Origin: a virus
Taxonomy: Duplodnaviria; Heunggongvirae; Uroviricota; Caudoviricetes
Length of the DNA stretch: 64,000 nucleotides
Direction: 5' to 3' (one strand)
IMG/VR virus record: IMGVR_UViG_3300035208_001992
Of this stretch, positions 5,608-63,979 are shown in pieces; position 1 is the stretch's first letter, and each line of letters opens with the position of its first letter. The position numbers were made by a program, and so were the translations under genes. The notes below the pieces were generated by a model. That model saw nothing but the letters and a program-made list of their open reading frames with translations, made no database searches and was not told the DNA's origin.

Positions 5608-5632
5608 CTGTTAGTCTTTATTTACAAAGTTG
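5608..5632 (-). promoter_or_regulatory. upstream element ATTTACAAAGTT (plus-strand spelling); representative copy ahead of the recA-like gene
   Basis: Other copies at 8858-8870, 15043-15054, 23393-23430, 29102-29114, 38711-38741, 42161-42175, 49535-49572, 52739-52755, 55846-55871, 60921-60960 and 63730-63746. All have the same orientation and all lie 10-120 nt upstream of minus-strand starts. Confidence 0.45.
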
Positions 5633-5638
5633 TTCGAG

Positions 5639-7282
5639 TTAGCTCGGCAGTGTTGTAACCGGATATGTCTTGTGGCAGGCGGGGCAGTGATATTCCATCT
5701 CGTAGAACGAGTTGAATCTCGTTCGCAATGGAGAGTTGCCGCAACTGCACATGACTGGCAGTTCCAGTTCTTGTCGAACTGCACGCATACGACCGTCAGC
5801 AAGAGCTAAACCAAGGAACCGTGACGAGTCTTCTCTGTTTCCATTCGGCATGAAGAACGTTGCTGCAACACTTGTAGTTGCAATAGCTTTTCCGCGTGTG
5901 AACGAATCCCAGAATGACACGTCATGCTCAGCAACGTACTCGCTGAAGTAAGCGTTCAAAGTTGCAACGCGTTGCTCGTCATCTTGTTCAAGGATGAGAT
6001 CATCATAGAGCTCTGTGAGGCCAGTATTCAATGATGAAGGGAAAGCCGCGTCTAACGCCATGACAACGCTACAGCCACGCGATGACAAGTAGATTCCATG
6101 TCCGTTCTTGACAATGAATTTCTTGCGTAGCAACCAGCTTAATGCTGACCAAACTTCTCGTTCACTCAACAAATTGCGTGCAGCATCAGCGATCTCTCGT
6201 AGCGGAACGAGATTGGCGTTCAACTCAAGCCTCGACGCAACTGGTTGCTCAAGCATTATCGGCTTCGTTGTCTTGATGTCTGCAAGCGGTGCAAAGCTTG
6301 GGTAGTGCTCAATTGCGCCCATGTAACGTAGTGATCCAGCAACGCCTGTAAGTTCTACTGCGTCGATCGGCTCACAACACGCGATGCCTGCTTGCACAAC
6401 GAGCCATTCGTACAACGGACGTGCAGCAAGCTCGTCAACAATCATTCGCGGATTGAAGCTTGATGGTTGCGTTGGCCAGAGATACAAATTGCGCGGCGGG
6501 TTTGGCGCTGCTTTCAAGCCCCAAGATTCGACTAACTTGACGTACTCGTCATAGCACTCGTCAGGCATGCCGATTTCGCCACTCGTGATGACGCCTTGAG
6601 CTTGCAGCTTTTCAACAGCAGCCCATAAGCGCTCCCAAGGTACTGGCGCGCAGATTATTGATGCAGGTTGAGCAATAAGTACAGCGTTGCGCTGCGTTGT
6701 TCTCAACGTATCGATGTTGCGTCCACCAGTAAATTCGCGACCATGCTTGTCTTTGAACGAGTATGGTTTATACGCCTGGCAACTACGATGCAATATGCCA
6801 AGTACATATGCTTGTTGACGCGTCAGCTCGATGCTTGCGCCAACGTTGTACATCTGCTCGAACAATGAATTCAAACGTTGACTCAGCATGCGATCGATGA
6901 CGAAGCGCGTATCTGGTCCTGATTCAAGTTCTGTCGTTTGTGTAGACGCGATCGTTGCAGGCCTGAAGTCGTCCGGAAACAAAAAAGAGACCTGTGCGTT
7001 GACACCGCACAAGGCCTCTTGCATGTCTCGAGCTAAAACCCTACCATAGCTGTTAGCGTCGAACACGCCTACAACTTGCTGGCAGCGTGAAGCGAGTGAC
7101 ACGAGCTTCTCAATCTTAGCTTTTGCAAGCGGCTTGAGCTTTGGCCACGCGTCACTCTTCACTTTTGCTGTTTTAGTGTAACGACCGAACAGGGGAAAAT
7201 CCACTGCAACGACTTGGTCCGCTGGAAACGCTGTGCGAAGACTTGGAATCTTCGAACTAGCGTCAGTGACTACAAGTCGCAT
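5639..7282 (-). CDS. Toprim-domain protein, type IA topoisomerase-like with C-terminal zinc ribbon
   Basis: N-terminus MRLVVTDASSKIPSLRTAF resembles the TopA block LVIVESPAKAKTI. Acidic DANSYGRVLARD Toprim motif. LLRKKFIVKNGHGIYLSSRG resembles the topo IA domain-IV LIxRGYV...LxPTxxG. C-terminal CSCG...HCPACH zinc ribbon. Confidence 0.4.
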   Translation of the reverse strand: MRLVVTDASSKIPSLRTAFPADQVVAVDFPLFGRYTKTAKVKSDAWPKLKPLAKAKIEKLVSLASRCQQVVGVFDANSYGRVLARDMQEALCGVNAQVSFLFPDDFRPATIASTQTTELESGPDTRFVIDRMLSQRLNSLFEQMYNVGASIELTRQQAYVLGILHRSCQAYKPYSFKDKHGREFTGGRNIDTLRTTQRNAVLIAQPASIICAPVPWERLWAAVEKLQAQGVITSGEIGMPDECYDEYVKLVESWGLKAAPNPPRNLYLWPTQPSSFNPRMIVDELAARPLYEWLVVQAGIACCEPIDAVELTGVAGSLRYMGAIEHYPSFAPLADIKTTKPIMLEQPVASRLELNANLVPLREIADAARNLLSEREVWSALSWLLRKKFIVKNGHGIYLSSRGCSVVMALDAAFPSSLNTGLTELYDDLILEQDDEQRVATLNAYFSEYVAEHDVSFWDSFTRGKAIATTSVAATFFMPNGNREDSSRFLGLALADGRMRAVRQELELPVMCSCGNSPLRTRFNSFYEMEYHCPACHKTYPVTTLPS

Positions 7283-7561
7283 TGTTTGACTAGCTCCTGA
7301 TTGTTGCGTCGACTAAACGCGTGATCTCAAGGTCTCCAACAGCTGAAGCAGTCTCTTCTCCAGCTGCGTTGTAAAGCACTAGCGCTGGTACGCGCACCCG
7401 CTTGAACACTTCGCAGATTTCGGGCGTTGCCTTGATCCGCTTTATGCGCCAGTTCTTAGCAAGCCTTGACAACGCATCTTCAACGAGACGCGTTGTCAAG
7501 CCAAGCTCAAGAAAAACAGCGGTTGCAATCCCGTCAGCCAGTGCGGTTGCACCGGCATCCA

Positions 7562-8000
7562 TCAGCGTGACTGACGAGGCGGAGGAGCTGCAGGACGACG
7601 TGCTGCGGCCTGTGGAGGCGGAGCAGCGCGACGAGCAGGAGCAGCAGGCGGAGCCGTCATTGGACGCCTGTTAGCGGCCGGAGGCGGAGCAGCATTGCGG
7701 CGCTGCGGTGGCAGCGGAGGATCGTCGAGGTCTACCTCGAATCCATCACCGTCTTCGGGCTCGAGCGGAAGGTCGCCGCCGTCATCGTCGAGTGGCAGAT
7801 CATCATCATAGCTCGGTGCAGGAGCTGCACGACGGCTTGCAGCAGGAGCTGCACCACGGCGGGCTGGAGTCGGAGGCAGATCATCGTCGAGTCCGAGCTC
7901 GTCATCACCGCCGTCATCGAGAAGCGTCTGGCTGCGTGCTTGTCCACGAGCTGGAGCAGCGGCTGCTCCGCGGCCCGGCTGTGCACGTGCATTGCCTCCG
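7562..8000. repeat. GC-rich low-complexity/repetitive segment (CAGGAGCTGCAC(G/C)ACGGC direct repeats)
   Basis: GCAGGAGCTGCACGACGGC at ~7814 and GCAGGAGCTGCACCACGGC at ~7841. GC content rises sharply relative to the ~50% window average. Confidence 0.6.
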
Positions 8001-8740
8001 CCGATGACACCGCCAGTGCGATCCAGCGTGCCGTCGAGAAGAAGAGGGTACTTCTTCTGCGTCAAGTCGCGGATCATCTCGTCGGCGTCGCCAGGAACGT
8101 ACACGGATGCGAAGTCTGTGGCCTCGGACTTGACGATCTGGTACTGCTCGCGAGTGAGACGAACAGGCTGGCCGTATTCAACGATCCAGGTCTCTTGCCC
8201 GGCGTTAGGCGTGTACGTGACATAGACCGAATAGCCGTCAGCCGGATGCCAGATGTTGCCACCGTAGCGCTTGATGATGCGACCGAGCTTCTTGTTGACG
8301 CCCTTGGGCATCATGAACGGCACGAGAGACTTCGACCACTCACGCAGTGCAGGCTGAGCTGCCGACGGGATGCGGAAGAAGACGTCGACCAATGCGCAAC
8401 GCTCAGGCCAACCAAGGTACTCGGAATAAGTCGAGCAGAATGGGCAGCTTTCGACGTTCGTCTGGCCGTTAGCGTGGTTGACGTCGGGGCACTCGAAGCC
8501 GACCTTTTTGGCCTTGCGAGCATCACCGTGCTTGGCTTTGAGTCCGTCTTGTCCTTCGTTCTTGAAGATCCAAGCGTCTTGGACGTCCAAGTACCACCAG
8601 TGACTCGCGATGTAGTACGGGTCCTTAGTGACGATGCGAACTTCGATTTCCTGCTGTGGGTACTGTGACGGCTGCAGCATCTGAATCTGCTGATACCACT
8701 TGATACGTGCTTGGCCTTGGCCAAATCCATCCCATGACAT
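7562..8740 (-). CDS. Zn-binding protein with long disordered Pro/Ala/Arg/Asp-rich C-terminal tail; possible gp32-like ssDNA-binding protein
   Basis: SD AGGAGAACGAAAT precedes the ATG. The globular N-half carries a His+3Cys cluster (ECPDVNHANGQTNVESCPFC) like the T4 gp32 Zn site, and KKLGRIIKRYGGNIW resembles gp32 FKYRFGKKIWDKI. The C-half (nt 7562-8000) is 70% GC and encodes DDDLPLDDDGG...PPAANRRP...ARRAAPPPQAAARRPAAPPP. Confidence 0.4.
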   Translation of the reverse strand: MSWDGFGQGQARIKWYQQIQMLQPSQYPQQEIEVRIVTKDPYYIASHWWYLDVQDAWIFKNEGQDGLKAKHGDARKAKKVGFECPDVNHANGQTNVESCPFCSTYSEYLGWPERCALVDVFFRIPSAAQPALREWSKSLVPFMMPKGVNKKLGRIIKRYGGNIWHPADGYSVYVTYTPNAGQETWIVEYGQPVRLTREQYQIVKSEATDFASVYVPGDADEMIRDLTQKKYPLLLDGTLDRTGGVIGGGNARAQPGRGAAAAPARGQARSQTLLDDGGDDELGLDDDLPPTPARRGAAPAASRRAAPAPSYDDDLPLDDDGGDLPLEPEDGDGFEVDLDDPPLPPQRRNAAPPPAANRRPMTAPPAAPARRAAPPPQAAARRPAAPPPRQSR

Positions 8741-8880
8741 ATTTCGTTCTCCTATGAGCTATTTCGCCTTTGCCGAATTCACGGACTGGCTTACTGCGCA
8801 TTGTGTTGACCGGCCTTTGTTGTTAGACGAAACCGACCGGTAGTTCCATCTGTTGTCTCTTTACAAAGTTAGTTCAAACA

Positions 8881-10005
8881 TCAATGACTCTCGCATTGAC
8901 AAGCGTATAATTGCCTAGCAGCTTCGCGATCGAGCATCTGTTGATCAATGTCGTTCAGATGCAGGTCGATGTCAAATGCGATTGAGAGCACCAAGCGATC
9001 TCGCGCAGAAAGGCCTTTGCTATACGCCTCAATCTGTTGTCGCGTTTGAGCTACTTCGTTTTCGCGCTCAACGCGACGATCATGGTAGTCTTCGAGGCTT
9101 TCAGCGTTCTCATCTGACTCTTCGATGATCGGCATTGCATTGCGAATGTCGAGTAGATGCGCTGAGTCGTGAAGTAGCTTTGCATCGATTCCCTCGCGCT
9201 TAGCGATCTGCTCGATCTCAAGATGAGAGTTGCGCTCGAGTATGCTACGGTGCTTCCATACGCGGCTCGGCATCTTGATCGTGTTGCTTGCAACTGAGAT
9301 GCCGTTGACCATGTAGCTCTTGATCCACATGTCTGCTATGAACGCGTAAGCTCCAATGCGCGTGTCATATCGGCCAATGGCTAACAGGATCCCGTGGTAG
9401 CCATTCTGGTAATTCTCGAAGAAAGCCCAAGGCTCATTTGCGAATGCGCGTGCAAGTGACACGATTTTGCGCAGATACGGACGAACCATGCGCTCAATGA
9501 TGCCAGAGACTCGATTCAGCTGGTGACGCGCTTCAGCAATCGCTCCGTAGAGACTATGACTGCTCGCATCAAGCTCGAGCTCTATTGCTTCGGCTTTCTT
9601 CCTCGCGGCTGGGTCATCACTTATGCAAAGATCCTGGTAGCACTCGTAGCGCTTCAAGAAACCTTGTATCGCTTTGATCCAGTGACCACGGTGTAAATTT
9701 ATGTCCTTGCGGACAAGATCAAGCCAATTCGGCCCGTTGAGCTGCGGTAGCATTGTATACAGCAAGTGATCACCAACGCTGCTGTGCGATTTGCGCAATT
9801 GCTTGAAGATCGCGCTTGTCGCAAATCGTGCGTACTGATGTCTAACCCAATCAGTGTGGCAATCCAGTGTTCTCAGCGCGCGATAAACGCAATCGTCCAC
9901 GAGACCAACAAGCATCACTGCGTCTTCGTTTCGAAGAGTTGGGTACTTGAAGGCGCTGTACAACTGCGCATTCGATCGATCGTATGCGGCGCGTGCATTA
10001 CGCAT
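8881..10005 (-). CDS. sigma-70 family RNA polymerase sigma factor
   Basis: Region 2-like YQNGYHGILLAIGRYDTRIGAYAFIADMWIKSYM matches DLIQEGNIGLMKAVDKFD...FSTYATWWIRQAI. Region 4-like LSARDRLVLSIAFDI matches LTPREREVL. Confidence 0.7.
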   Translation of the reverse strand: MRNARAAYDRSNAQLYSAFKYPTLRNEDAVMLVGLVDDCVYRALRTLDCHTDWVRHQYARFATSAIFKQLRKSHSSVGDHLLYTMLPQLNGPNWLDLVRKDINLHRGHWIKAIQGFLKRYECYQDLCISDDPAARKKAEAIELELDASSHSLYGAIAEARHQLNRVSGIIERMVRPYLRKIVSLARAFANEPWAFFENYQNGYHGILLAIGRYDTRIGAYAFIADMWIKSYMVNGISVASNTIKMPSRVWKHRSILERNSHLEIEQIAKREGIDAKLLHDSAHLLDIRNAMPIIEESDENAESLEDYHDRRVERENEVAQTRQQIEAYSKGLSARDRLVLSIAFDIDLHLNDIDQQMLDREAARQLYACQCESH

Positions 10006-10654
10006 GTGTTGGGTGCCTCAGCATACGGTGATCGCGCCGGTCAATGCAGCTTTCGTAGTCGTTGCTTGATATGTGAAGCCAATCAGTGTTGTCAATGCAC
10101 CTGTAGCCTTCGGTTCCATGATCGTAGACGGTTGCGGATGCGATCTTGATCCATGCATCATCTTCGGTTGCGAGCCTTCGAATCTCGCGTGCAACTGGAA
10201 CAAGCGAAGGATCGCGTGAGACGAACAAAGCAACATCGAACTCAGCATCATTGTATAGTCGAAGAGCGTCGATCGCCATTGTGACGACCATTTCTTCGTG
10301 ACCATAAACGCGCGTCATCTTTGTTTCACGTATCGAGCCATCTTGATTGAAGATCGGGCACTGACGTGGCGCAGGACGATTCACAAACGCATTGACGTCA
10401 ACGCCATCTCGCTGGTGTGCCGCGATCTTGTTAGCCCAGAACCCGCACCAGTATTCGCTTTGCTCGATTGATGGAGTCATCACGTAAAGACGTGTCGAAG
10501 TAAGAGTCCAACCGTTCTTTTCGCAAAGCAACTTCGAGATCTTCTGTGGCTCGTAGTTCGGATATGATGCGCCAGTGACAGCTTGAGCAGCTCGATGCAA
10601 GGACGTGGAGTCAATGAATGTGATACAGCGTTTCTCAGCTGGCTCGTGCATCAA
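9998..10654 (-). CDS. NYN/LabA-like (PIN-fold) putative nuclease
   Basis: CITFIDSTSL (IAVFIDGENL-like) and DVALFVSRDPSLVPVAREI (DTLVLVSGDGDF-like). Confidence 0.4.
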   Translation of the reverse strand: MMHEPAEKRCITFIDSTSLHRAAQAVTGASYPNYEPQKISKLLCEKNGWTLTSTRLYVMTPSIEQSEYWCGFWANKIAAHQRDGVDVNAFVNRPAPRQCPIFNQDGSIRETKMTRVYGHEEMVVTMAIDALRLYNDAEFDVALFVSRDPSLVPVAREIRRLATEDDAWIKIASATVYDHGTEGYRCIDNTDWLHISSNDYESCIDRRDHRMLRHPTHA

Positions 10655-11845: not shown

Positions 11846-12661
11846 TCAGACTCCGAGTTTGAATGAAGATAATGGTTGTGTAAGCCAGTTGCGTGCTGTG
11901 TCGAGCGTTGCGCACCATTCGCTGACGTTGATGTACTCATCAGGTGTGTGCTCGTTGTAGTAGCCAACGCCGATGTTAGCGCCAGGAATGCGTGTGCACA
12001 AGAACGAAATGTCGCTGAATGACTTTGGTGGAGCCATTGGTCGACCAATTGCTTTGGATACATATGAATCGAATTCAGGCGTGCCTACTTCATATGTCTT
12101 GAAGTCTGCAACGCCCATGCGGTCGAACTCGATGCAGAATGAATGGCGATCTTGTATAGCATTCCATTCAGGCCAGCGCTCAGCAACGTATCGAGCGCCG
12201 AGACCGCCTGCTTCCTCGCCATCAGTGATCAGGATAGAGTGTCCAAGCGACGCAAGTTGCCAGATCATCGCAATTCCTGCACGGTCATCAGCGCCGATGC
12301 CAAAGCGACTCGAGCGTGACCTGATCTTGTCTTTGTGGAACTCGATCGCTGTGTATGCTAACGCGTCAAACGGGATATATGACATTGAGCCGAATGACCA
12401 CGCAGTATCAGCATGCGCGACCATGATGCAACGATCTTCGCGCGTGCCCTCGATGAAGAGAGCCCGCTTGTTGCCAAAGCCAATGTCTATCGCTTGTGGA
12501 AAGCGACGACAGAACGACATGAAGATCCTGCCAGTGTCATACACTACGTTTTCGCGAATGAAGTGAATCAGCGCACTAGCATCTAGCTCGAATTGTCCGT
12601 TGTCACGGACGTCGAACTTGGATTGCGCAGCATCAAAGATCGCGAACTTTGATTCATTCAT
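11846..12661 (-). CDS. M28/M42-family metallopeptidase-like protein
   Basis: Metal-ligand order VAHADTAW (H-x-D), GIGADDRAGIA (D), DGEEAGGLG (EE) and a C-terminal NEHTPDE (H). Confidence 0.55.
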   Translation of the reverse strand: MNESKFAIFDAAQSKFDVRDNGQFELDASALIHFIRENVVYDTGRIFMSFCRRFPQAIDIGFGNKRALFIEGTREDRCIMVAHADTAWSFGSMSYIPFDALAYTAIEFHKDKIRSRSSRFGIGADDRAGIAMIWQLASLGHSILITDGEEAGGLGARYVAERWPEWNAIQDRHSFCIEFDRMGVADFKTYEVGTPEFDSYVSKAIGRPMAPPKSFSDISFLCTRIPGANIGVGYYNEHTPDEYINVSEWCATLDTARNWLTQPLSSFKLGV

Positions 12662-14021: not shown

Positions 14022-14646
14022 GGTTTCTCCTTAGCGAGTCCTGTTCGAATTTGGACATCGCGGGTTGAAAGCACGACGGGTTGTACGTCAACTGAGACAT
14101 GCTGTTGAAATTGAAATGGTAGTATCCTGTAGCATCATGGAAAACGCTTTCGTCAAGCCGTGTGTGATGACTCTTTCCGTAAGTGGATCTAGGCCACCAA
14201 CGCAAATTGTCAACGACATGGAGCTCTACCATGTGCTGATCTTTGTTGATCTCATCATTGGAGTGGATGAAGAAATGAACAAGTCCTGTCCACTGCTCGA
14301 CTGGCATTGTGCTCTCATCTGTGCAAGAGCCAAATGAGCCAGCTTGGTAGTAAAAGCGGCGTGAGTCAAGCTGTTTTCCGAAGTCGGCTACTACGTCATC
14401 GCCAACTAGACTGTCGAGTATAAGTTTGCGCGTCTTGATCGTGTTGATGATCCATAGCAACTTGTCAAGGTTCGTGCCGAACTGGACGTTGAAATGTCCA
14501 GTCATAAACTGGGCCACGTCAACTAACCTGACTGCGAGCGGCGTCTTTGATCGGTGAATGAGCTTGTCGCCGATCTTGTAGAACTCGCGCTCATTGCTTA
14601 TGAGCTTGTCAGATGCTTGGAAGCCACTTGGAACGCTCAGCTTCAT
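14011..14646 (-). CDS. hypothetical protein
   Basis: 211-aa ORF. Confidence 0.5.
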   Translation of the reverse strand: MKLSVPSGFQASDKLISNEREFYKIGDKLIHRSKTPLAVRLVDVAQFMTGHFNVQFGTNLDKLLWIINTIKTRKLILDSLVGDDVVADFGKQLDSRRFYYQAGSFGSCTDESTMPVEQWTGLVHFFIHSNDEINKDQHMVELHVVDNLRWWPRSTYGKSHHTRLDESVFHDATGYYHFNFNSMSQLTYNPSCFQPAMSKFEQDSLRRNLGT

Positions 14647-15035
14647 GTTTCACCTCTAATGTTTGAATCAGCGCTCAATTCGAGCTGTTGACTTTGATTG
14701 AACATTGCTAGGTATCGCTCGTGCAGTTCACGCACGGCACCAACAATGATTTCTGGCTGTATTGCTACTTGAGCGTAAGAACCGATGGGCATGATCTGCT
14801 CACCGATGCGTGTTAATGCATTGAGGTACTTTGTCTTAGCAGCGTACGCTAGACCATAGAGTTCAACGAGGAGCAATGCGTTGTTCAATGCAGCTTCTGC
14901 CGAGAAACAGCCGTTTGAATCTGGCCCGGCAATGCGCTCTATTGCAACGCCGTTTGTCATCAGAAACGATACAAGCTCGTGATGGCCCGAGCTTGCTGTG
15001 TTAGTCACTGCTAAAGAGCGCTCAATGCTATCCAT
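14643..15035 (-). CDS. hypothetical protein
   Basis: 130-aa ORF; a CCTTTACAAGGTTG motif lies just upstream. Confidence 0.5.
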   Translation of the reverse strand: MDSIERSLAVTNTASSGHHELVSFLMTNGVAIERIAGPDSNGCFSAEAALNNALLLVELYGLAYAAKTKYLNALTRIGEQIMPIGSYAQVAIQPEIIVGAVRELHERYLAMFNQSQQLELSADSNIRGET

Positions 15036-15243
15036 GTTGATCCTTTACAAGGTTGCAAGTGTGGAACAGATTCAAGCGCCTCGACAAGTCATGGTTGTCA
15101 GCAAGCATGTGCTCAACCAATGACATATCAGAGCCTGGACCTTCAGCAGCTCCAGCGTCGCGCATCACTTCCAACAACCGATTCAGTCTACGATTGCTCA
15201 TGAACATGTGCGTGCTGATGAGCTCGCGCTCTTGGGCTTCCAT
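15028..15243 (-). CDS. hypothetical small protein
   Basis: Start trimmed to MEAQERE so that it abuts the stop of the HAD gene. Confidence 0.35.
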   Translation of the reverse strand: MEAQERELISTHMFMSNRRLNRLLEVMRDAGAAEGPGSDMSLVEHMLADNHDLSRRLNLFHTCNLVKDQHG

Positions 15244-18465: not shown

Positions 18466-18618
18466 TCAGTTCTTGTCAATGAATCTGAAATGACCGAGGC
18501 CATGCGCGATGCCGACCAGCGTCAATCCAATGAGCCCGAAGAACATGAACGAGACCACGCCGTTCCAGAAGCCGCAACGGAATGAGAAATCCATCAGCAT
18601 CATGATGTCACTTGCCAT
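18466..18618 (-). CDS. small hydrophobic membrane protein
   Basis: TM segment VVSFMFFGLIGLTLVGIA; start trimmed to MASDIMM. Confidence 0.35.
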   Translation of the reverse strand: MASDIMMLMDFSFRCGFWNGVVSFMFFGLIGLTLVGIAHGLGHFRFIDKN

Positions 18619-18865
18619 GGTTGGCCTCACGTTCGCGCTCGTCGAGAATCTCGAGCATTTGGTTGCGCAGTTCGCGCGGTGTCGGCTTCTTGTTGCCAGC
18701 ACTCGCTAAACGTCGACGAGCTGTCATCGACAGTGCGAGATCGTTGAGTGCTTCGTCACTGTGTGCCTGATGGGTAGGTTCTTGTGACTGCTCCATAGCC
18801 ATCGCAGCTGACAGCATTGTGACAAGACCTGAGCTTGGATGGCGCGTTGATTGCATTGTGCCCAT
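18608..18865 (-). CDS. hypothetical protein
   Basis: 85-aa ORF preceded by a CCAAAGTTAG upstream motif. Confidence 0.4.
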   Translation of the reverse strand: MGTMQSTRHPSSGLVTMLSAAMAMEQSQEPTHQAHSDEALNDLALSMTARRRLASAGNKKPTPRELRNQMLEILDEREREANHGK

Positions 18866-19020
18866 TGTTACTTTCCAAAGTTAGTCTCAGTGAGGTTCTC
18901 TGCGGCGACGTAGACTCTGGCCTACGCGCTTCTCCCAATTAACCACAATCACCTCGAACGTCATAAACGTTTGAGCTGCATTTTATCTCAGACTGAGACC
19001 GCAGAGAACCAGACTGTGAA

Positions 19021-23119: not shown

Positions 23120-23371
23120 TTAGTCTGCACGGTCGGCAGCATCTCCATTGACGCGCGCCTCAAGCAGCTTTACTGTTGGGCCAAATTCTGGCCAATCGCT
23201 CTCAATCACGATCACACCAAGCTCTGACTTGCCGTCATGAGCGCGTCCGACGCTGATCTTGCGCATGATGACAGACAAAGCTTGACAATCAGCAGTGTTC
23301 AAGTACTTCTCTGCATCGCTACCTTTGACAACTACATATCGTGGTTCTAGTTTGAATGCTGGTTTCGCCAT
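23120..23371 (-). CDS. hypothetical protein
   Basis: 83-aa ORF with a CTATTTACAAGG upstream motif. Confidence 0.45.
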   Translation of the reverse strand: MAKPAFKLEPRYVVVKGSDAEKYLNTADCQALSVIMRKISVGRAHDGKSELGVIVIESDWPEFGPTVKLLEARVNGDAADRAD

Positions 23372-23424
23372 TGAGCCCTCTGTGGTTGTCTATTCTATTT
23401 ACAAGGCACGATGTTTACAACGCG

Positions 23425-38685: not shown

Positions 38686-38750
38686 GTTGTGTGCCTTATC
38701 AGCACAAGATCAATTTACAAAGTTTGCATTGTTTACACTAGATTAACGCG

Positions 38751-42465: not shown

Positions 42466-42491
42466 AGCGTTCTCCTAGTGTGAGTTGTGAA

Positions 42492-42565
42492 TGGGCCTAC
42501 AGGGATTCGAACCCTGGACCAAGCGATTATGAGTCGCGTGCTCTAACCAGCTGAGCTATAGGCCC
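42492..42565 (-). tRNA. tRNA-Met/Ile2 (CAT), elongator-type
   Basis: GGGCCTATAGCTCAGCTGGTTAGAGC, anticodon loop CTCATAA, T-arm GGGTTCGAATCCC. Confidence 0.65.
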
Positions 42566-43770: not shown

Positions 43771-43802
43771 TTCGATTCTCCTAAGTTGTGAATTGGAAGC
43801 AA

Positions 43803-46673: not shown

Positions 46674-46976
46674 TGCGTAATCCTTGAATTGTGAATTGAA
46701 AGAGCGCGTCCTGCAGTTGCCGCTGTACGTTGTATCGGGTCAATGTGGCGAAACCTACTTGTCCTCTTTCGAGGCATTACCCATTCAGTTAGCTCGCCGT
46801 TGACAATTTTAGTCATTGCAGGCACGAAGCGCAAGAGGATCATACAGACTTGTTCGACGGTTGATAGTCGAGCCTTCGAGCGTTATCACATAGTCTTGTG
46901 GACTTGCTGTACTCGTGGGGTATCTTGCGTTTTCTGTCATACGCGTCGAAACTTTCGTCTCGAACGCGCTCTTAAG

Positions 46977-49518: not shown

Positions 49519-49723
49519 CTTTCGTTCACTAGATCAATTTACGCAGTTGCACAGTTTACAGCAAGTTAACGCTTGTCTGAGAGTTCGTTGAACAGCGCAA
49601 CGAGGTCAGCTAAGAACTTGGCACGATCAATGAACGGTCGATTGAGATTGTCTTGCAGCACTGCATCGATTCTCGCGTTCAACGCTGGCTTGACTTCTTC
49701 TTGTTCGTTAGTTGGCTGAGTGC

Positions 49724-52683: not shown

Positions 52684-52761
52684 TTCCTTTGATGAAACTA
52701 TGAAAGGCCATGCTTGCGCATGGCCTTATGATCAGTACCTATTTACAAGGAGTTGTGATCA

Positions 52762-53745
52762 TCAGTTGTCGAAATACTTTGTCGTGTCATGGTTGACGAC
52801 GTTGTTCTTCAGTGTGACACGCGCAACGATCCTGTTGTAACGCTTCAGCGAGTCATAAATTGCGTAGGTATAGTCAAGCGTCTTAGGATCGACTAGTGGC
52901 TCAGTGTTGAATTGGTAACGAGTTGCACTTGCAGTATTTACCCAGTTAGTGTCATTAGCAAGTCTCCATTCAACAAGCTTAACATCATTGGAATAGTTTG
53001 AGCTGTCAAGTTTTAGCTTGACGATGTGACGGCCAGTTCCAATGACTGTGGGAATCAATGAGTCCTTGTTGAATGTGAACACCGGCACATAGTTGTTGTA
53101 GCGGATCGGAAGCATCTGCACATCACCAGCTTCAGTCGTGAACTCCATCGGCGTCTTCGACTTGCTGATTGTGTCACCCAAAGAATCGCGCACAACCAAG
53201 CTGATCAAATACGTTTGGATCGAGTCAGACGAGACAAGGTAGAAGAACTTCGAGTAGTTGGCGCTGGCCTTGTTGTACCAGAAGTTCAACAGGTACTTCG
53301 TCGAGTCAGGCATGTTGATCACTGCGCTGACTTGCAGTGCTTTCCCAATTGGCGCGTTCAACAGCGTGCCAAAGACGTCGCGTTGCACGACATACAACGG
53401 AGGCAATTCAACGTTGTATGACGTAACTGGCTTGGCTACAATAACTTGCGAGTCCTTGCTGATGACGATCGAATCCGTGGCATCGAAGGTCCTGCCTGCG
53501 ACAGCGCGTGCGGCGCTAACACTCAACGACCACTTGCCATCTGCGTCCGTGGTGGCTGTGGCTCCAGTGGACTTGAGACGCACTTTGGCATTGGGAATGC
53601 CCTTGCCGTTCGGATCGAGGATGGACCCGTGCAGACCTGTGACGGACGTGAGACCGCCGTTGTCAGGGTTGTTGCTGCTTGTGGAACTGTCGCACGCTGC
53701 AATGGCAAGCGTTGCGAGCATGGCGATGAATAGCTTGGTGTTCAT
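52762..53745 (-). CDS. lipoprotein with Ig-like/CarboxypepD_reg-like domain
   Basis: MNTKLFIAMLATLAIAACDSS (lipobox), then GSILDPNGKGIPNAKVRLKSTG; SD AAGGAG. Confidence 0.55.
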   Translation of the reverse strand: MNTKLFIAMLATLAIAACDSSTSSNNPDNGGLTSVTGLHGSILDPNGKGIPNAKVRLKSTGATATTDADGKWSLSVSAARAVAGRTFDATDSIVISKDSQVIVAKPVTSYNVELPPLYVVQRDVFGTLLNAPIGKALQVSAVINMPDSTKYLLNFWYNKASANYSKFFYLVSSDSIQTYLISLVVRDSLGDTISKSKTPMEFTTEAGDVQMLPIRYNNYVPVFTFNKDSLIPTVIGTGRHIVKLKLDSSNYSNDVKLVEWRLANDTNWVNTASATRYQFNTEPLVDPKTLDYTYAIYDSLKRYNRIVARVTLKNNVVNHDTTKYFDN

Positions 53746-53859
53746 GCTGTTTCTCCTTTAGGTGAATCCTTCCAAAATGGAAGAATTTGTGGCATTGGGA
53801 TTGGATGTACCCAGTATAAATATAATGCAACTAAAGTAGAAAGTACACTTATTTGTGAA

Positions 53860-55010: not shown

Positions 55011-55823
55011 TTACATCGAATCATCAGTTGGATCGACGTCGTCTTCGAGCCATTCAGTGCGGTTGAACGGTAATGTGCGGCCACGGCCATGCTGATTTGA
55101 GTCATGCATTGTGTCGTTGGCTTCGTCATCAAAGCCGCCGCCGAGCGCTGGATCGTGATCACCAGATTCGTCATCCCAGTCTTCTTCTGTCGCCAATGGT
55201 TGGTCGTCGCGCGGGACGTCAAACACGTCGATTCCGTCGTATTCTGGGTGTGGATCTTCACTAACTTTGACAGCGTGCTTGAAGTGACGGGCCATCTCGA
55301 AGTGATCGCATGTCGTAGTGACGCGCTCAGCTTTGTCGCGATCAGGTCCTAAGAACACAGTGATCTTCCAAAGAGGAACGTCGTCTCCGAATTCGGAGTC
55401 TTCTTCGTCAGCGTCAATTGAGATCACGTCCTGATCTTCAGCACCGCCGATCAACCAACGCTCAGTATGATGGTACTTCGAGACTTTGCTGAGATCTTCA
55501 AGCTGCTGATCGTGAACATCGTCAAAGAGGCTCTGCAGTTCTTCGAGTTGCTCGGACAGCTGATGATTGCGCGTGATCGCATCACCACCGACGGCCTCAA
55601 GCAAGCTGTAAACGAAGTCGAAGTTGTTGAGAAGCAACTTACAGAAGTTCTTCGGTTCTTGATACTTCGGTGGCAGGTCTTCAACGAAGGCTCCAAGCTG
55701 CGCAATTGCAGTTGGCATACCGGTCTTGACGAAGTCGTCAGCGCTCACGCCGAGATAGATGCAGAATGATTCGATACGGCCACGCAGTTGAGGGCCAAAG
55801 CGATCTAGATGACTATTGCTCAT
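55011..55823 (-). CDS. hypothetical acidic protein
   Basis: 270-aa Asp/Glu-rich ORF. Confidence 0.5.
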   Translation of the reverse strand: MSNSHLDRFGPQLRGRIESFCIYLGVSADDFVKTGMPTAIAQLGAFVEDLPPKYQEPKNFCKLLLNNFDFVYSLLEAVGGDAITRNHQLSEQLEELQSLFDDVHDQQLEDLSKVSKYHHTERWLIGGAEDQDVISIDADEEDSEFGDDVPLWKITVFLGPDRDKAERVTTTCDHFEMARHFKHAVKVSEDPHPEYDGIDVFDVPRDDQPLATEEDWDDESGDHDPALGGGFDDEANDTMHDSNQHGRGRTLPFNRTEWLEDDVDPTDDSM

Positions 55824-55875
55824 GATATGTATTCTCCATGTAGGTCATTTACACGGTTGTGCAATTTACTGATGA

Positions 55876-56298
55876 TTAACGTGATCCAGACTCGTATTGT
55901 GCGCGTTCAGCGCGCTGAGCTAGCTGGTTCAGCATAGCCTCTAGAATCTCGTCTTCGATCGCCGCAAGTTCTCTTACCGCGCTCTCATTACCAGACTCTA
56001 GTCTGACAATTCTTGTATTGAGTTCTGCATCGCGCTTTTGCTCAAGCATGATGCTGAATTCAAATGTTGCTGTAAGCACGTTGATGATTCGGCCGATCGT
56101 GACTACAGCCACATAGCGCTCATCGGCAATCTTGACTCCGCGTAGACTTGAACGCAGTATTTCGATATGGTTCGATAAGCGCTTGATACGCGCAATGAGT
56201 TTCGTCAATTGGACATTATTTTGAACTGGCACGTCTGTACCTCTCAGGAATGTCTTCTGCTTTTCGTGGCTTGCTGATTCCAGGAAGGACCTTCTCAA
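55876..56298 (-). CDS. hypothetical protein
   Basis: 140-aa ORF. Confidence 0.4.
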   Translation of the reverse strand: MRRSFLESASHEKQKTFLRGTDVPVQNNVQLTKLIARIKRLSNHIEILRSSLRGVKIADERYVAVVTIGRIINVLTATFEFSIMLEQKRDAELNTRIVRLESGNESAVRELAAIEDEILEAMLNQLAQRAERAQYESGSR

Positions 56299-57151: not shown

Positions 57152-58332
57152 GCCTTCGGCTCGAATCTGAACTTATGACCATTGAACAGCATGAGCAGTG
57201 GCTTCTCATCAATCCCAACTGGCCACCAATTGCGGTTGTTGTGCCACTTTGGACTGCGATTGAACTTGACTGGATGACGCGACTTTGCAAGCACGTCAGT
57301 ATCTGTCTCACCTTGGAACCCAGCGATGCGCACGAGTTCTACCATCCCGTAGTAACCACGCTTCAATATGATTGTTTGGCATGACGAGTTGTGTGAGATG
57401 ATTGGCTCACGGCTGTTCTTGACGTTTGTTGGCGTTGGAACATCCTTGAGTGAAAGCCGTTTTGCGATCACGTTTGCTAGTCCAACGTCACACCCTGTTT
57501 CAGCAGCTGCAAGTGACCACGGGCGCTTGCTCACGAATACCTTCCACGCAAATGCGATTGCTGTGCGCGGAACAGACGTGGCTTGCATCTCCTTGATGTA
57601 CAATGCAGCTTCTCTCGTCATCGGGATCTTCTTGGCCTTCACATATGCTGTGAATGCCTTGGCGTTAGCAGAGATGAACTGCTTGCGCTTAGCGATCGAC
57701 ACAACAGTTTCGATGTCGGTTGCTGCCTTTGCAATCGCTTGCGTGACAAAGCCGTATACGAGCAGCTTAAGCAACGCGTATTCACCTACGTCTGAGCGCT
57801 TGTCTCCTAGAAGAGCAAATGCGCGCTTGATGTCGATGTTCTTGACCACTGCGTTCTTCGGATTCGAGAACTGCTTTTCGACGCGCTCGACCTTCTTGAT
57901 GATCTTTTGCATAGTGTCGTCATCGATTCCTGTGCTGTGCATCAGTGCATCAGTCGCATTTGAACCGATACTCGACTTTGCTTGCCAGGCTTCACCCTTG
58001 AACGTGGCGTCGAATGGATCAAGCTCATGCTCTTCGAGCTTTGATGGTGAAGCACACAAAATATATCGTGCGTCTTGCGAGAACTTTCCAGACTTCAATA
58101 TCGCCGATAGAGTCTCGAAGTTCGGGAAAATGAAGACTACATGCTGTCTCGATGGCTTTGTTAGCGCCTCGTTGTAGAATGAGAACGCTTGCTTCATGTT
58201 CGTGCCTGCAGATGGCACGATATGAACGTTGAACTTTGATCGATCCAGCATTAAGCGGATCACCTGTGGGTTGATGAATCCAAAGCAGAGCACGGGTTTG
58301 TCTCCTTTACCGGTGAGTATTGTCTTTGACAA
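57148..58332 (-). CDS. hypothetical protein
   Basis: 394-aa ORF. Confidence 0.45.
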   Translation of the reverse strand: MSKTILTGKGDKPVLCFGFINPQVIRLMLDRSKFNVHIVPSAGTNMKQAFSFYNEALTKPSRQHVVFIFPNFETLSAILKSGKFSQDARYILCASPSKLEEHELDPFDATFKGEAWQAKSSIGSNATDALMHSTGIDDDTMQKIIKKVERVEKQFSNPKNAVVKNIDIKRAFALLGDKRSDVGEYALLKLLVYGFVTQAIAKAATDIETVVSIAKRKQFISANAKAFTAYVKAKKIPMTREAALYIKEMQATSVPRTAIAFAWKVFVSKRPWSLAAAETGCDVGLANVIAKRLSLKDVPTPTNVKNSREPIISHNSSCQTIILKRGYYGMVELVRIAGFQGETDTDVLAKSRHPVKFNRSPKWHNNRNWWPVGIDEKPLLMLFNGHKFRFEPKA

Positions 58333-60916
58333 CTACATGCGTCACGCCATTCTTTTCCTTCGTGACGGTAAGCGTCCTATCGAATGTCTTGGGATCGATC
58401 TCCTGCGAGTGACTGATGACGAATAGCCCGTCTTTGCGCTTACGCATCAGCGGAATGAAGATACCAGCCAGCAGTCGCTGGCCATATGGATCAAGTGAGC
58501 GGTCTGCCTCGTCAAGTACAAGCAAGTTAGAGCGCTTCTCGCGAGCAACAAGCTCTGACATGGTCAGCATCAAGCAGACAGCTAAGCGTGAGCGCTCACC
58601 GCCGCTAAGAGCAGATACGTCAATCTTCTGCGTCTTCATTTTGCCGTCGACAAGAATTCGCTTTGCAACAGTCAAACTCAGCTTGCGCTCGTCACCGTTG
58701 ACTTCGACAGCGAAGTCCTTCTCTGTGAAGAGAATGCGAGTCCAGTATGGAAGCCGACCAGCGAGGGCTTGAAGCAGCTTGCGTAAGCCTTCACGCTTGA
58801 ATCCCGTCTTGGAGTAAGCAGGCTTCGTCTTCGCGATCACGAGCTCACGGTTCTCAAGCTCGTTGAGCCGCTTGATTTTCTCTTGGAGCGCAGCTAGATG
58901 ATCGCGCTTTTGACGGTAATTGTCAGCGATTTGCTTGTATCTGTCGTACTGCACGCGTGCGTCATTGATCTTGGCGTTAGCTTGTTCTAAACGCATCTCA
59001 AGACGCTCACGTTGCGAGTTCAGCTGTTGCAGCTCGCTGACAACGTCAAGCTCAAACGGATCGCTGATTGAGAGTGCCTCAGCGCTGGCAATCACTTGCG
59101 CGCTGACATGCTCAGCTTGGTAATATGTGTCGCGCCGCGTCTCGTTGTCTTCAACTATGCGCGTATAGTGTTGGACAGCTTTCGTCAATTTGGAGACGTT
59201 GACGCCTTGCAAGTCAGTCTTGAGTTGACTGCGCTGATCAAGCAATTTGCGATGCTGTCTAGCAACACGCAATGTTTGATCTATGTTGAGAACGCGTGCG
59301 TGCGCTTGATCGAGTGCATCGAGATCTTGAAGTGACGCAGCAGCATCGCGAGCTTCGTTTGCAAGCTTTGAGTAATCGACGAATTTGGAGTGCAGTGACT
59401 CGATCGCATCGTGCTTATCCTCGATTTCGATACATTTCGAATCGAGTGCTTGCCCACGATCTAACAGCTGATCGATCACACGTTGTACTGCTTTGACATC
59501 AATGTCTTGCAAGCACATTGGGCACTTACAAGCAGACTTGCTGTGGTCTGAGATATTCGCTACAAGAGAGCTCAGTGTGCTATGCTGCTCGCTAGTTGCG
59601 CGCATATCAGCTGTGATCTCAGACAAGTACTGCTTGATCTTCTCGTAAGATTCGCTTATCAAACGCTGGTCAGGCTTGATGCGCAGTTGCCGGCACGCAT
59701 CTGCAATTTGTGTCTTCAGTGCAGCTGCACCGCGAGTCAACAGATCGATTTGCGATCGATTCCAACGCGTCTTACGTGACAACTCTGGTATCACGCGCGT
59801 GTTCAAGTTGGATAGCTCTTTTTCTAGGAGCTGCAAGTCAACAGTCGGCAGATTCAGCGTTGCGAGCTTCTCTTCAATCTCAACAAGCTGAGCATATTTG
59901 TCTTGCAGCTGTTGAGCCTTTTCAAGCTTTCTCTCAATTGCGCGACAGCTCTCGTCGAACGTTGACAGCAGCTTGCCATCAACAAGAAGCGTGCGCTCTT
60001 GCGTGTCAAGCTCAAGCTTCTGAAAGTCGTCTAACTGACGTGATATTTCATTGTAACGATCTACGCGACGCGATGTGTCTGTGAGTTGCGCGCGCATAGC
60101 TGTGAGCCTTGGCGCGTTCTGATCGATCAATGCGCGCAAAGATCGTGCCTTTGCGATGATGTCATTGATGTTGCCTGCATGAGACACTTCTTGTTCAACA
60201 GCGCGGTACTCGCCTTTGAACTCTAGAAGCTTCTCGATTTCTGACTTCACTTCTATGTGCAGTCCGTCGAGATATCGATAGATGTCATCATACTTGGTGA
60301 AGCCGTAGAGATCAGACAGGAACGTGATGCGCTCTTGTGGCTTGCCACAGATCAACGTATGCGTGAAGTCCTGAGGCCAGATCGTGGTGCCGATCATCTC
60401 GTTGTAAGTCATGCCGATCAGCGCTTGCAGCTTGGCACGCAGCATGTTCGGATCATTGACAGCGCCCCATGGCTTGAGCTTCTTGCCGACTATCTCATAG
60501 GCGTGCAGACCTTCGGGGTATGACTCATGATTGTGAGCCTCACGAACGAGATACCACTTGTTGTGGCGCTTGACTGTGTTCTCTATGCGGAAGTTCTTAC
60601 CAAAGACCATAGCGTCTTTGATTGACTCAGCAGAGCCAAGTGCCTTCCTGCCGTACCATAAGTACAGCATGAGCTTCCACATGCGCGTTTTGCCAGCGCC
60701 AGAACTTGACGGCTCTTGCGACTGCAGATTATGTCCGACCACGCAGACGAGACCAGCATTAGCAATGTCAATTTTGTGCACGCCTGCATAGCCGTACGCA
60801 TTTTCAAATAGGAAGTATCCGTACTTGGTGCCGTACTCACTAGAAACACGAGAAGCCGCTAACTCGGTTGAGTCAAGCGGCTTCGTTGTTGCGCGTTTAA
60901 TTTGTGTCTTCTGCAT
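58307..60916 (-). CDS. SbcC/Rad50-like SMC ATPase (gp46-like)
   Basis: Walker A GAGKT; ~500-aa coiled coil with CKCPMC zinc hook; signature LSGGERSRL; Walker B LLVLDEADRSLD. Confidence 0.85.
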   Translation of the reverse strand: MQKTQIKRATTKPLDSTELAASRVSSEYGTKYGYFLFENAYGYAGVHKIDIANAGLVCVVGHNLQSQEPSSSGAGKTRMWKLMLYLWYGRKALGSAESIKDAMVFGKNFRIENTVKRHNKWYLVREAHNHESYPEGLHAYEIVGKKLKPWGAVNDPNMLRAKLQALIGMTYNEMIGTTIWPQDFTHTLICGKPQERITFLSDLYGFTKYDDIYRYLDGLHIEVKSEIEKLLEFKGEYRAVEQEVSHAGNINDIIAKARSLRALIDQNAPRLTAMRAQLTDTSRRVDRYNEISRQLDDFQKLELDTQERTLLVDGKLLSTFDESCRAIERKLEKAQQLQDKYAQLVEIEEKLATLNLPTVDLQLLEKELSNLNTRVIPELSRKTRWNRSQIDLLTRGAAALKTQIADACRQLRIKPDQRLISESYEKIKQYLSEITADMRATSEQHSTLSSLVANISDHSKSACKCPMCLQDIDVKAVQRVIDQLLDRGQALDSKCIEIEDKHDAIESLHSKFVDYSKLANEARDAAASLQDLDALDQAHARVLNIDQTLRVARQHRKLLDQRSQLKTDLQGVNVSKLTKAVQHYTRIVEDNETRRDTYYQAEHVSAQVIASAEALSISDPFELDVVSELQQLNSQRERLEMRLEQANAKINDARVQYDRYKQIADNYRQKRDHLAALQEKIKRLNELENRELVIAKTKPAYSKTGFKREGLRKLLQALAGRLPYWTRILFTEKDFAVEVNGDERKLSLTVAKRILVDGKMKTQKIDVSALSGGERSRLAVCLMLTMSELVAREKRSNLLVLDEADRSLDPYGQRLLAGIFIPLMRKRKDGLFVISHSQEIDPKTFDRTLTVTKEKNGVTHVVVKDNTHR

Positions 60917-60961
60917 GCTTTTTATTTACAATCCTTATGCATTTACAGTGTGTTAACACGC

Positions 60962-63108: not shown

Positions 63109-63225
63109 GACCTTTTCTCTTCGACTCTGTTAGAATCTCATGAGGGTCCTGGCCAGTTTGAGACCAAGCGTTGAGCTTGTTAGCGAGATCAGCGTTGATA
63201 TGCACTGCAACTTTCTCCTGTTTGA

Positions 63226-63726
63226 TCAGTTTTGTTCGCTGGGCACAATGACTGCGTACGGCCGCATATTGATTTCGCGATCGTAGTATGCGAGTGCTCC
63301 ATCAAACACAGCGCGAAGCTTGATGAGCTCGTCAATGCTTGTCATCTCGGCGGGAGTGTCGCAGCCGAACAGGACTTGCGCAATCAAATGATCATCATAG
63401 CGGTTTCCATTGCTACGGAAGTGCGCAACAAGGTTCTTGAACAGCTGACTCTTCATGTTCGAAAGCACAGCGCCTTCGAACGATGAGTGCTTTTCGCCCT
63501 TTGCGTCCTTGAACTCGACGACAGGAACAGCGTCAACCGAGATCTGTGCAGGATCGTCGGCGCGCTCGTCCGAGCTGTTTACGGATCCAGCTGTAGCACT
63601 ATCACGCGCTTGCTTGCGCAATGCAGCAGCAAGTGCACCGCCACTGAGCTTCTTGCCGCTAAACTTCTTGTCGCTTGGCATGTTGATCTCCATTGTTGAT
63701 GTTGATTCCACGTGACTGTGGGACAT
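63226..63726 (-). CDS. hypothetical protein
   Basis: 166-aa ORF with a CTATTTACACAGTTTGC upstream motif. Confidence 0.45.
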   Translation of the reverse strand: MSHSHVESTSTMEINMPSDKKFSGKKLSGGALAAALRKQARDSATAGSVNSSDERADDPAQISVDAVPVVEFKDAKGEKHSSFEGAVLSNMKSQLFKNLVAHFRSNGNRYDDHLIAQVLFGCDTPAEMTSIDELIKLRAVFDGALAYYDREINMRPYAVIVPSEQN

Positions 63727-63733
63727 TATCTAT

Positions 63734-63979
63734 TTACACAGTTTGCTTAGCAACAGGAATGAACGTATGCATGTCTGATTCATTGATACCGTTGAGAGCT
63801 GCATACGGAATCTCATTTACGCTGACGATGACAATGCGTGCAACATCGTGCTTGACGCAAATGATCTTCATCAAGTCTAACAAGACGTACTCGCAGTTGA
63901 TTGTCCTGAAACACAAAGAACCAAAATCGAGATTTGGGCCATCGCGCTCTGATTGAGGCATGTTGGCGCTCGAATGCAC
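63734..63979 (-). CDS. hypothetical protein
   Basis: 81-aa ORF. Confidence 0.35.
   Translation of the reverse strand: MHSSANMPQSERDGPNLDFGSLCFRTINCEYVLLDLMKIICVKHDVARIVIVSVNEIPYAALNGINESDMHTFIPVAKQTV

Follow-up and report, generated by a model that had tools for sequence, protein, structure and literature searches.

Which signal recurs between the genes of the virus recorded as IMGVR_UViG_3300035208_001992, and what would read it? We addressed this question on a stretch of 64,000 nucleotides (nt), referred to as the window, in whose intergenic DNA a short A/T-rich element with the core TGTAAA is found in front of minus-strand genes. The source is an uncultured jumbo phage with a genome of ~306 kb, since the sigma-like and SbcC-like open reading frames (ORFs) of the window are identical to two public proteins on a 305,891-bp contig; the analysis covers 64 kb of this genome. 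Near-identity searches with the DNA and proteins of the sigma region in a collection of cultured phages found no close match to the window. The window has a GC content of ~49%, and nearly all of its genes, including all 16 tRNA genes, lie on the minus strand, so that upstream corresponds to higher coordinates. As set out in the following, the element is probably best explained as the core of a phage-lineage-specific promoter class, with a sigma factor encoded by the phage as its likeliest reader.

In gene sense, that is, on the minus strand, the simple element reads AACTTTGTAAAT and its overall form is aACTTTGTAAAT; column counts yield the consensus a-A-C-T-T-T-G-T-A-A-A-T, within which GTAAA is invariant. 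Eleven strong copies were found, every one on the minus strand and between genes, in addition to two weaker variants, and their distance to the start codon ranges from 7 to ~120 nt, mostly 18-50 nt. Chance expectations were taken from shuffle controls: The pattern ACNNNGTAAAK has 13 matches (11 of them on the minus strand) as compared to 2.04 +/- 1.5 expected, and ATTTACAAAGTT at no more than one mismatch has six, all in a single orientation, as compared to 0.19. Gene-sense GTAAAT occurs 19 times in the window, and 13 of these copies fall into the 12.4% that a crude gene model leaves non-coding. A position weight matrix (PWM) scores 11 sites at or above 15.5 bits, all on the minus strand, with a top plus-strand score of 11.4; having been trained on the same 11 sites, this test is circular, yet it shows the gap in score. 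A ranking that is blind to the motif led to the same sequence: Among all 4096 hexamers, TGTAAA ranks first for intergenic enrichment on the coding strand (13/18 copies intergenic, p=1.4e-7), followed by TTGTAA. The motif is non-random, strand-specific and intergenic. An earlier interpretation of this DNA from its letters alone, in the following called the sequence-only reading, had described a recurrent intergenic element of constant orientation, and this description holds (11/11 strong sites; 13/18 copies of TGTAAA); its literal consensus MATTTACAMRGTT, in contrast, fits two sites only, the invariant part being TGTAAA.

We then compared the window with nine related loci (designated by L and a number), which were retrieved via homologs of the sigma factor and SbcC at 45-79% identity and are all syntenic with the window; the sigma-like protein itself has 14 relative clusters among 5.8 billion proteins. 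Throughout this comparison the motif stays in orthologous places, amid non-coding flanks that have diverged: It precedes the RecA-like gene in three genomes, namely the window (5620), L027 (14393) and L029 (14387), where the flanks have diverged, and it precedes SbcC in all four genomes available for this gene. The core is retained across relatives that span 44% to 58% GC, including the most distant one, L032 (58% GC), in which GTAAAT is kept and the upstream half differs and reads GCGTGGTTY. Three further scans added no loci: Viral contigs searched with the single sequence of the RecA-like protein gave no match, a scan of viral contigs with the composite pattern described below gave 26 single hits, none of them with ACTTTGTAAA, which were treated as chance, and a metagenome scan with an alignment of the clamp loader found relatives of at most 33% identity only, which were not used.

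Among cultured phages, the best matches of the RecA-like protein come from jumbo phages of the PaBG/AD1/Y3 type (~28-31% identity). The gene order sigma-SSB-RecA/UvsX is common to the clade of the window, PaBG and AD1, and the order clamp loader, then SbcC, is also found in PaBG. Within 241 kb of PaBG (Pseudomonas phage, Baikalvirus), TGTAAA occurs 38 times on the coding strand, with 18 of these copies in the intergenic fraction of 8.4%, and eight times in antisense, with no copy being intergenic. The hexamer ranks third for intergenic enrichment (p=2.6e-10), surpassed only by two T-run hexamers of terminators, and the sites conform to the consensus aAA(C/G)TGTAAA(C/T). Several of them directly follow terminators, and the genes behind them encode DNA polymerase I, topoisomerase II, SbcD, a second DNA polymerase, regulators and tRNA-Thr. 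AD1 (Dickeya phage, Alexandravirus) carries CTGTAAATA upstream of its sigma gene, AACTGTAAAC in the sigma-SSB spacer, at the same place as the site at 8859 in the window, and a third copy after a terminator. The sites of both cultured phages thus resemble those of the window in the TGTAAA core, the coding-strand orientation, the intergenic location and a pyrimidine-purine signature at positions 7 and 8 downstream, and likewise lie ahead of DNA-metabolism genes and tRNAs, often after terminators. They differ in the upstream half, which is aAA(C/G)TGTAAA in PaBG and AACTT-TGTAAA in the window, and in the last base, which is mostly C/T in PaBG and T/G in the window. The TGTAAA element is hence a lineage-wide signal rather than a peculiarity of the window. 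The paper on PaBG notes a sigma gene and reports no promoter motif (PMC7412058), and in the literature searched we found no description of a TGTAAA promoter class in the PaBG/AD1-type lineage. That the copies arose by chance or are left over from repeats or mobile elements and have no regulatory role, for which nothing but the shortness of the core speaks, is vanishingly improbable and effectively refuted by the excess over the shuffle controls, the first rank of the hexamer, the retention of orthologous sites next to diverged flanks and the independent enrichment in PaBG.

One indication of what kind of signal the element constitutes comes from the SbcC-like gene (58307-60916, minus strand). 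In four genomes (the window, L034, L035 and L036) GTAAAT is followed after exactly 7 nt by the ATG of this gene, with 7-nt sequences that differ from each other. None of these starts has a Shine-Dalgarno sequence, and the TAA within the motif is an in-frame stop, which is why the SbcC ORF cannot extend upstream; in the same four genomes there is no alternative ATG, GTG or TTG ahead of the conserved N-terminal residues. This arrangement suggests that the SbcC-like mRNA is leaderless and would start at the A of the ATG, so that GTAAAT would span -13 to -8. The same spacing of 7 nt between motif and ATG recurs at L036 3662 and L032 9341. At the strong sites of the window, a purine follows at position 8 after GTAAAK in 10 of 11 cases, and position 7 is occupied by a pyrimidine in 8 of 11. 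In PaBG, position 8 after GTAAAN is a purine at all 17 intergenic sites as compared to 11 of 20 copies in coding regions, and position 7 is a pyrimidine at 13 of the 17; in all three AD1 copies, position 7 is C/T and position 8 is A. A start at this purine would put T at -12 and A at -11, with variable positions -8 and -7. The window sites lack the conserved T at -7 that characterizes a canonical TATAAT, and neither the window sites nor those of PaBG are accompanied by a conserved -35 hexamer. We also considered TTGTAA as a -35 element, which is impossible where ATG follows within 7-9 nt and has no -10 element downstream, and a Bacteroidetes-type TAnnTTTG box, which was rejected as its TA is not conserved. 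The motif is almost certainly a phage-specific promoter, and the evidence points to a -10-type element.

The genomic context points in the same direction. A strong intrinsic terminator directly precedes the motif in L030 and L033, and the next gene comes after the motif; with such an order a new promoter is needed, which weighs against a signal that acts at the RNA level. Moreover, the motif precedes tRNA genes in the window, in L031 and in PaBG, which excludes a purely translational role. From occurrence, conservation and geometry, all of which were computed, we infer promoter activity and consider it very likely that the element is a promoter. The phage promoter class that the sequence-only reading had proposed is accordingly borne out by the restriction to one strand and to intergenic DNA, the conservation of orthologous sites, the start signature, the GTAAAT-N7-ATG spacing of SbcC and the order terminator-motif-gene. 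We regard it as very improbable that the element instead makes or marks 5' ends in RNA, be it as a processing site, for instance for a NYN-domain protein, or as a translation signal. A NYN-like ORF does overlap the start of the sigma gene, and cleavage just ahead of the AUG could also give the N7-ATG spacing; however, the terminators ahead of the motif in L030, L033, PaBG and AD1 mean that it would often not be transcribed from upstream, the distances to the start codon vary from 7 to ~120 nt, tRNAs are preceded as well, and the element has neither a conserved RNA structure nor an Rfam match, the Rfam search having returned tRNAs only. The NYN-domain-like ORF in question (9998-10654, minus strand; L027 9352-10008) was detected by Pfam at E=5e-4, below the curated cut-off. 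Its overlap with the start of the sigma gene is kept in relatives, and it may represent an RNase that is co-expressed with the sigma factor.

Five of the eleven strong sites are composite. At these sites a distal module of the form GTTAAY-N4-WGTAAAY precedes the proximal copy by 16-18 bp; it occurs five times, always on the minus strand, as compared to 0.01 copies expected. The doubled copies and the three GTTAAC-linked copies pointed out in the sequence-only reading are therefore real and form part of this composite arrangement. In four of the five composite sites the upstream half of the proximal element differs from AACTTT. The distal WGTAAAY copies are not followed by the start signature, with a purine in two of five cases as judged by eye, which led us to reject the doubled sites as tandem promoters and makes the module more likely an auxiliary upstream contact or activator site than a second promoter. 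Located at about -42 to -25, a position that resembles that of activator boxes, it probably serves as such an auxiliary contact or activator site. One may extend this notion to the whole element and take it for an operator or activator site of a phage DNA-binding regulator that lies beside promoters instead of being recognized by the polymerase itself. The distal part, written as GTTAAY-N5-GTAAAY, is indeed an imperfect inverted repeat at a position typical of activators and repressors, and its presence at merely 5 of 11 sites would suit a regulator. The proximal element, however, is devoid of dyad symmetry, its fixed distance to the pyrimidine-purine signature and to the leaderless ATG is a property of core promoters, and no other conserved promoter-like element was found near the sites, which renders this explanation quite improbable. 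The activator site that the sequence-only reading had offered as an alternative may thus fit the distal module of the five composites and does not fit the proximal element.

Who reads the promoter? The window encodes a divergent sigma-70-family protein of 374 amino acids (8881-10005, minus strand), which is the candidate reader. The ORF matches PHROG 351 at E=3.5e-11, and with Pfam the single sequence gives a weak match to Sigma70_r2; a profile of its 14 relatives aligns to SigA/RpoD structures in the PDB across regions 2 to 4 at E=3.7e-13, so that the earlier assignment of this ORF to the sigma-70 family stands. In place of Y430, W433, Q437, T440 and R441 of the Escherichia coli factor, the positions that read the -10 element, the window protein has I, L, S, I and S in the SigA alignment. 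In addition, the stretch ahead of its region 4.2 recognition helix is shorter by ~5 residues. Promoters of the host type also occur in these genomes: Although canonical sigma-70 promoters of the E. coli type show no enrichment here, TGTACT-N17-TATATT (53819-53847, minus strand) lies ahead of a lipoprotein-like gene (52762-53745) and reads TATAAT in the relatives, with -35-like and -10 blocks that are invariant in three genomes (L034 ~11895-11925; L035 ~12165-12195). PaBG and AD1 likewise have canonical TTGACT-N17-TACAAT and TGnTATAAT promoters ahead of small genes. These host-type promoters are a class separate from TGTAAA within the same genomes, and, as TGTAAA comes without -35 and without T at -7, the phage sigma factor becomes the most economical reader. 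We rate this assignment as slightly on the favourable side of even.

The next best candidate is the host's primary sigma factor, acting alone or modified by small phage proteins, in which case the phage sigma factor would serve another class such as late genes. The predicted T at -12 and A at -11 correspond to canonical -10 elements, and the functions behind the motif are of the early or middle type and include tRNAs. Furthermore, the motif drives the sigma gene from behind a terminator in L030 and precedes it in AD1. Set against this are the lack of a conserved T at -7 and of a -35, the TG that abuts the TA instead of occupying -15/-14, the coexistence of canonical sigma-70-type promoters as a different class, also in the Pseudomonas and Dickeya phages, and the retention of the core in relatives from 44% to 58% GC and in phages of both hosts. 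On balance, we consider recognition by the host factor unlikely.

Several observations nevertheless weigh against the phage sigma factor as reader, and against the promoter model that we build on it. The location of the motif directly upstream of the sigma gene in L030, behind the terminator, and in AD1 requires autoregulation together with a basal source of sigma, for which a host-sigma reader is the simpler assumption. The region 4.2 helix keeps R, E, R and Q, which hints at a -35-type recognition, whereas the simple sites have no conserved -35. The AlphaFold model of the sigma factor is poor (pLDDT 64, region 2 below 50), too poor for a fold search, and the window protein is barely alignable with gp118 of PaBG (hhalign E=0.028), so that the co-inheritance of sigma factor and promoter is argued from synteny, not from sequence. 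Other phage transcription factors encoded elsewhere in the ~306-kb genome may read the motif. Finally, the exact start sites downstream of TGTAAA, like the identity of the sigma factor, are what we infer from sequence alone.

With these points in mind, the phage sigma factor would operate as follows: The core RNA polymerase of the host, most likely combined with the divergent sigma-70-family factor of the phage (8881-10005), would recognize TGTAAA, usually as TGTAAAT or TGTAAAG, in the manner of a -10-type element that spans about -14 to -8 and would start transcription at the purine 8 nt past the last base of GTAAAK. Simple promoters would have an AAC-TT(T) upstream extension and no -35, composite promoters a weaker upstream half supplemented by GTTAAY-N4-WGTAAAY at about -42 to -25. 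In this way the promoters would drive the RecA-like gene, the SbcC-like gene, a putative SSB operon, the M16 peptidase-like gene, small ORFs and a tRNA. A more far-reaching version, which we find plausible but put somewhat below even, would make TGTAAA the cognate -10-type element, independent of both a -35 and T(-7), of a deeply divergent sigma factor that has been co-inherited beside SSB/RecA across a lineage of jumbo phages lacking RNA polymerase (PaBG, AD1 and this clade), including leaderless mRNAs and a composite module that recruits the shortened region 4 or a separate activator.

Late promoters of phage T4 are read by gp55 together with gp33 and the gp45 clamp, and they are the closest known system in form. 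Their element TATAAATA spans -13 to -6; in Aeromonas phage Aeh1 it takes the form CTAAATA (PMC1524935). Both T4 late promoters and the promoters described here consist of a single short A/T-rich element that is centred near -10 and has no -35, with a similar distance to the start. The geometry is offset by ~1 nt. TGTAAATa differs from TATAAATA at one position, the same that varies in Aeh1, whose element likewise differs from TGTAAATa at one base; roughly half of the sites in the window agree with the T4 late consensus at 7 of 8 positions, with GTAAAG and GTAAAC variants being common. Unlike in the T4 late element, the last two positions are not conserved here. The sigma factor of the window, with its 374 amino acids and regions 2-4, is unlike the small factors of the gp55 type and is the only one found in the 64 kb, and the promoters precede replication and recombination genes as well as tRNAs, whereas those of T4 late genes precede structural genes.

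In logic, the closest known systems are the promoters of other phage-encoded sigma factors: Those read by gp28 of Bacillus phage SPO1 and by gp36 of coliphage phiEco32 are known examples. There, too, a phage sigma factor steers the host core enzyme to a non-host consensus; the consensus differs, the sigma dependence is putative in our case, and in some relatives the sigma gene itself has the motif ahead of it. Jumbo phages that encode a sigma factor and lack an RNA polymerase are expected to redirect the polymerase of the host to phage-specific promoters (PMC7824862, PMC13282480), and TGTAAA is an expected kind of element and not a new mechanism. An extended -10 (TGnTATAAT) shares with the element a TG upstream of a TA-initiated A/T-rich block and a dispensable -35; here, however, no spacer base separates the TG from the TA, and a conserved T at -7 is missing. 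AD1 has genuine TGnTATAAT promoters as well, apart from its TGTAAA sites. T4 middle promoters, which combine a MotA box at about -30 with a sigma-70 -10 and depend on AsiA, resemble the five composite sites in having a second conserved module centred at about -30 to -40, but the distal module is unrelated to the MotA box and a canonical -10 is missing here.

For the PaBG/AD1-type lineage, these results provide a concrete conserved promoter candidate, TGTAAA with a predicted start 8 nt downstream. As the same signal is present in cultured phages with the tractable hosts Pseudomonas aeruginosa and Dickeya solani, the pairing of sigma factor and promoter is testable. The motif would improve the annotation of operons and start codons, as exemplified by the leaderless SbcC, and orthogonal sigma/promoter parts could eventually result.

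The individual sites, all on the minus strand, are given by the plus-strand positions of the 12-mer. Among the simple elements, AACTTTGTAAAT at 5620-5631 lies upstream of the RecA/UvsX-like gene 3999-5585, assigned by Pfam, with a predicted start at ~5612, 26 nt ahead of the ATG (5585). The RecA-like gene varies in length: It contains a LAGLIDADG intein (Pfam) in L030 (14289-16919), L031 (11344-14016) and L033 (14331-16982) and is likewise enlarged in AD1 (L063 19881-22406; 841 amino acids), while the window copy (528 amino acids) has no intein. In the three intein genomes no gap separates the gene from the ORF upstream of it, within which, at a depth of ~95 nt, a motif-like ACnnTGTAAAG is found.

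The simple element AACTTTGTAAAG at 8859-8870 is situated between the stop codon of the sigma gene (8881), that is, downstream of it, and a gene for 392 amino acids (7562-8740), to which the leader measures ~110 nt. This gene holds the slot of the annotated SSB gene in PaBG and AD1; the gp32-like function ascribed to it earlier finds support in this position only and is unverifiable by sequence. Orthologous sites exist in L027, L029, L030 and L031, hence in five genomes with the window, at 118-124 nt from the next start. When folded in these five genomes, the leader (~115 nt) did not exceed shuffled sequence in stability. Another conserved block, GCCnGTGCCGTAAATTCGGc (window 8772-8790, minus strand), precedes the gene after sigma by ~40 nt in six genomes (among them L027 11226, L029 11218, L031 8291 and L032 11158), with a core that is mutated to GTGAAT in the window and GTGAAA in L030. 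It could be a second GTAAAT-type promoter, resembling the L032 consensus CGTG..GTAAATACC, or a small CCG/CGG hairpin.

CACTTTGTAAAT at 29103-29114 lies 40 nt from the ATG (29062) of the M16-peptidase-like gene 27875-29062. A further copy of AACTTTGTAAAT at 42163-42174 lies 18 nt from a short ORF (MKTLGRVLL...) that precedes tRNA-Thr 41928-42001. AACTGTGTAAAT at 63732-63743 is found upstream of a gene ending at 63226, whose likely ATG lies ~50 nt downstream and is preceded by GGAG; here CAAACTGTGTAAATA is kept in L034 (2596) and L036 (7188), so in three genomes including the window.

CTCCTTGTAAAT at 52741-52752 lies just past the stop (52762) of the lipoprotein-like gene. The list of genes in front of which the sequence-only reading had placed the element is thus confirmed for RecA-like, M16, SbcC and tRNA-Glu and not for the lipoprotein, as the site is downstream of this gene (52762-53745), which has the canonical-looking promoter of its own described above. 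The predicted leader of site 52741 contains a strong hairpin and leads to a short ORF with its ATG ~62 nt downstream. This hairpin, AAGGCCATGC-GCAA-GCATGGCCTT (52704-52727, minus strand), starts 6 nt past the predicted start and could serve as a stem-loop that stabilises the 5' end, as an attenuator or, for the lipoprotein-like gene, as its terminator. The leader of the lipoprotein-like gene contains a conserved TGGGTA and the inverted repeat TTCTTCCAyTTTGGAAG (window 53768-53785).

The composite promoters comprise 23397-23429, upstream of a gene for 83 amino acids (23120-23371), with the proximal element TGCCTTGTAAAT (23397-23408) and the distal module GTTAACGCGTTGTAAAC (23413-23429); 49537-49570, upstream of a gene ending at 48742 with its ATG ~27 nt downstream, with AACTGCGTAAAT (49537-49548) and GTTAACTTGCTGTAAAC (49554-49570); 55847-55880, upstream of a gene for 270 amino acids (55011-55823), with AACCGTGTAAAT (55847-55858) and GTTAATCATCAGTAAAT (55864-55880); and 60924-60957, which belongs to the SbcC-like gene, with AGGATTGTAAAT (60924-60935) and GTTAACACACTGTAAAT (60941-60957). 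The ortholog of the promoter at 55847 in L034 reads GTTAAC-N3-TGTAAAC-N9-TGTAAAT (10411/10427). The fifth composite promoter, 38713-38747, lies 27 nt upstream of tRNA-Glu(CTC) 38612-38685 and combines AACTTTGTAAAT (38713-38724) with GTTAATCTAGTGTAAAC (38731-38747); in L031 an orthologous tRNA-Glu pair has TGTAAAG 13 nt upstream. A second tRNA-Glu(CTC) of the window (38197-38270, minus strand) was called by ARAGORN, falls below the Rfam gathering score for tRNAs and is not directly preceded by the motif; this tRNA may have degenerated.

The two weaker candidates, also on the minus strand, score 13.9 and 13.8 bits with the PWM. AACCTTGTAAAG at 15043-15054 is located in the 3' end of the upstream ORF and leads as GTAAAG-N7-ATG into the gene 14643-15035; alternatively, it could be a mere stop codon with a Shine-Dalgarno context. 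AACTTTGGAAAG at 18871-18882 lies 5 nt from the ATG of the gene 18608-18865. Just upstream of this variant, a perfect 12-bp inverted repeat, GGTTCTCTGCGG ... CCGCAGAGAACC (18894-18905 / 18999-19010, minus strand), encloses ~90 nt of the 155-nt spacer 18866-19020 and may mark an RNA with a structure of its own or what is left of an insertion.

Other recurrent elements are distinct from TGTAAA. In the tRNA region, a leader motif (T)TCAATTCACAAyTyAAGGA stands directly ahead of the Shine-Dalgarno sequence of minus-strand genes (34058-34069, 42485-42494, 43786-43796 and 46689-46700), with two copies that begin at the 3' ends of tRNAs, and CTAATCAACTG(G/T)G has three non-coding copies on the minus strand (40114-40124, 40895-40905 and 41719-41729). 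A strong intrinsic terminator at 994-1025 (minus strand), which is conserved in all relatives, is followed by GCAAAACAGC (967-976). As a second promoter class this sequence was rejected, given its single occurrence in the window; in three relatives it forms a perfect 16-bp palindrome CAAAACAGCTGTTTTG (L027 18969-18984; L029 19699-19714; L033 19546-19561), and the region looks like an operator ahead of a gene for 337 and a gene for ~1,420 amino acids.

Two observations concern the relatives only. At the end of the 135-kb contig L036 (10001-12325), the protein P0021 is SbcC-like in its N-terminal half, which is fused to a 3-dehydroquinate synthase, and GrpE comes next; this region is probably a phage-bacterial assembly chimera. 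Relatives further have coding sequences for a helical domain of 5-hmdU DNA kinase (PF18723) and for a glucosyltransferase of the T4 type (PF09198) (L030 133-1029; L027 1-845), which suggests that the DNA of this clade may carry hypermodified thymidine or glucosylation, a modification that could affect how a T-rich promoter is read.

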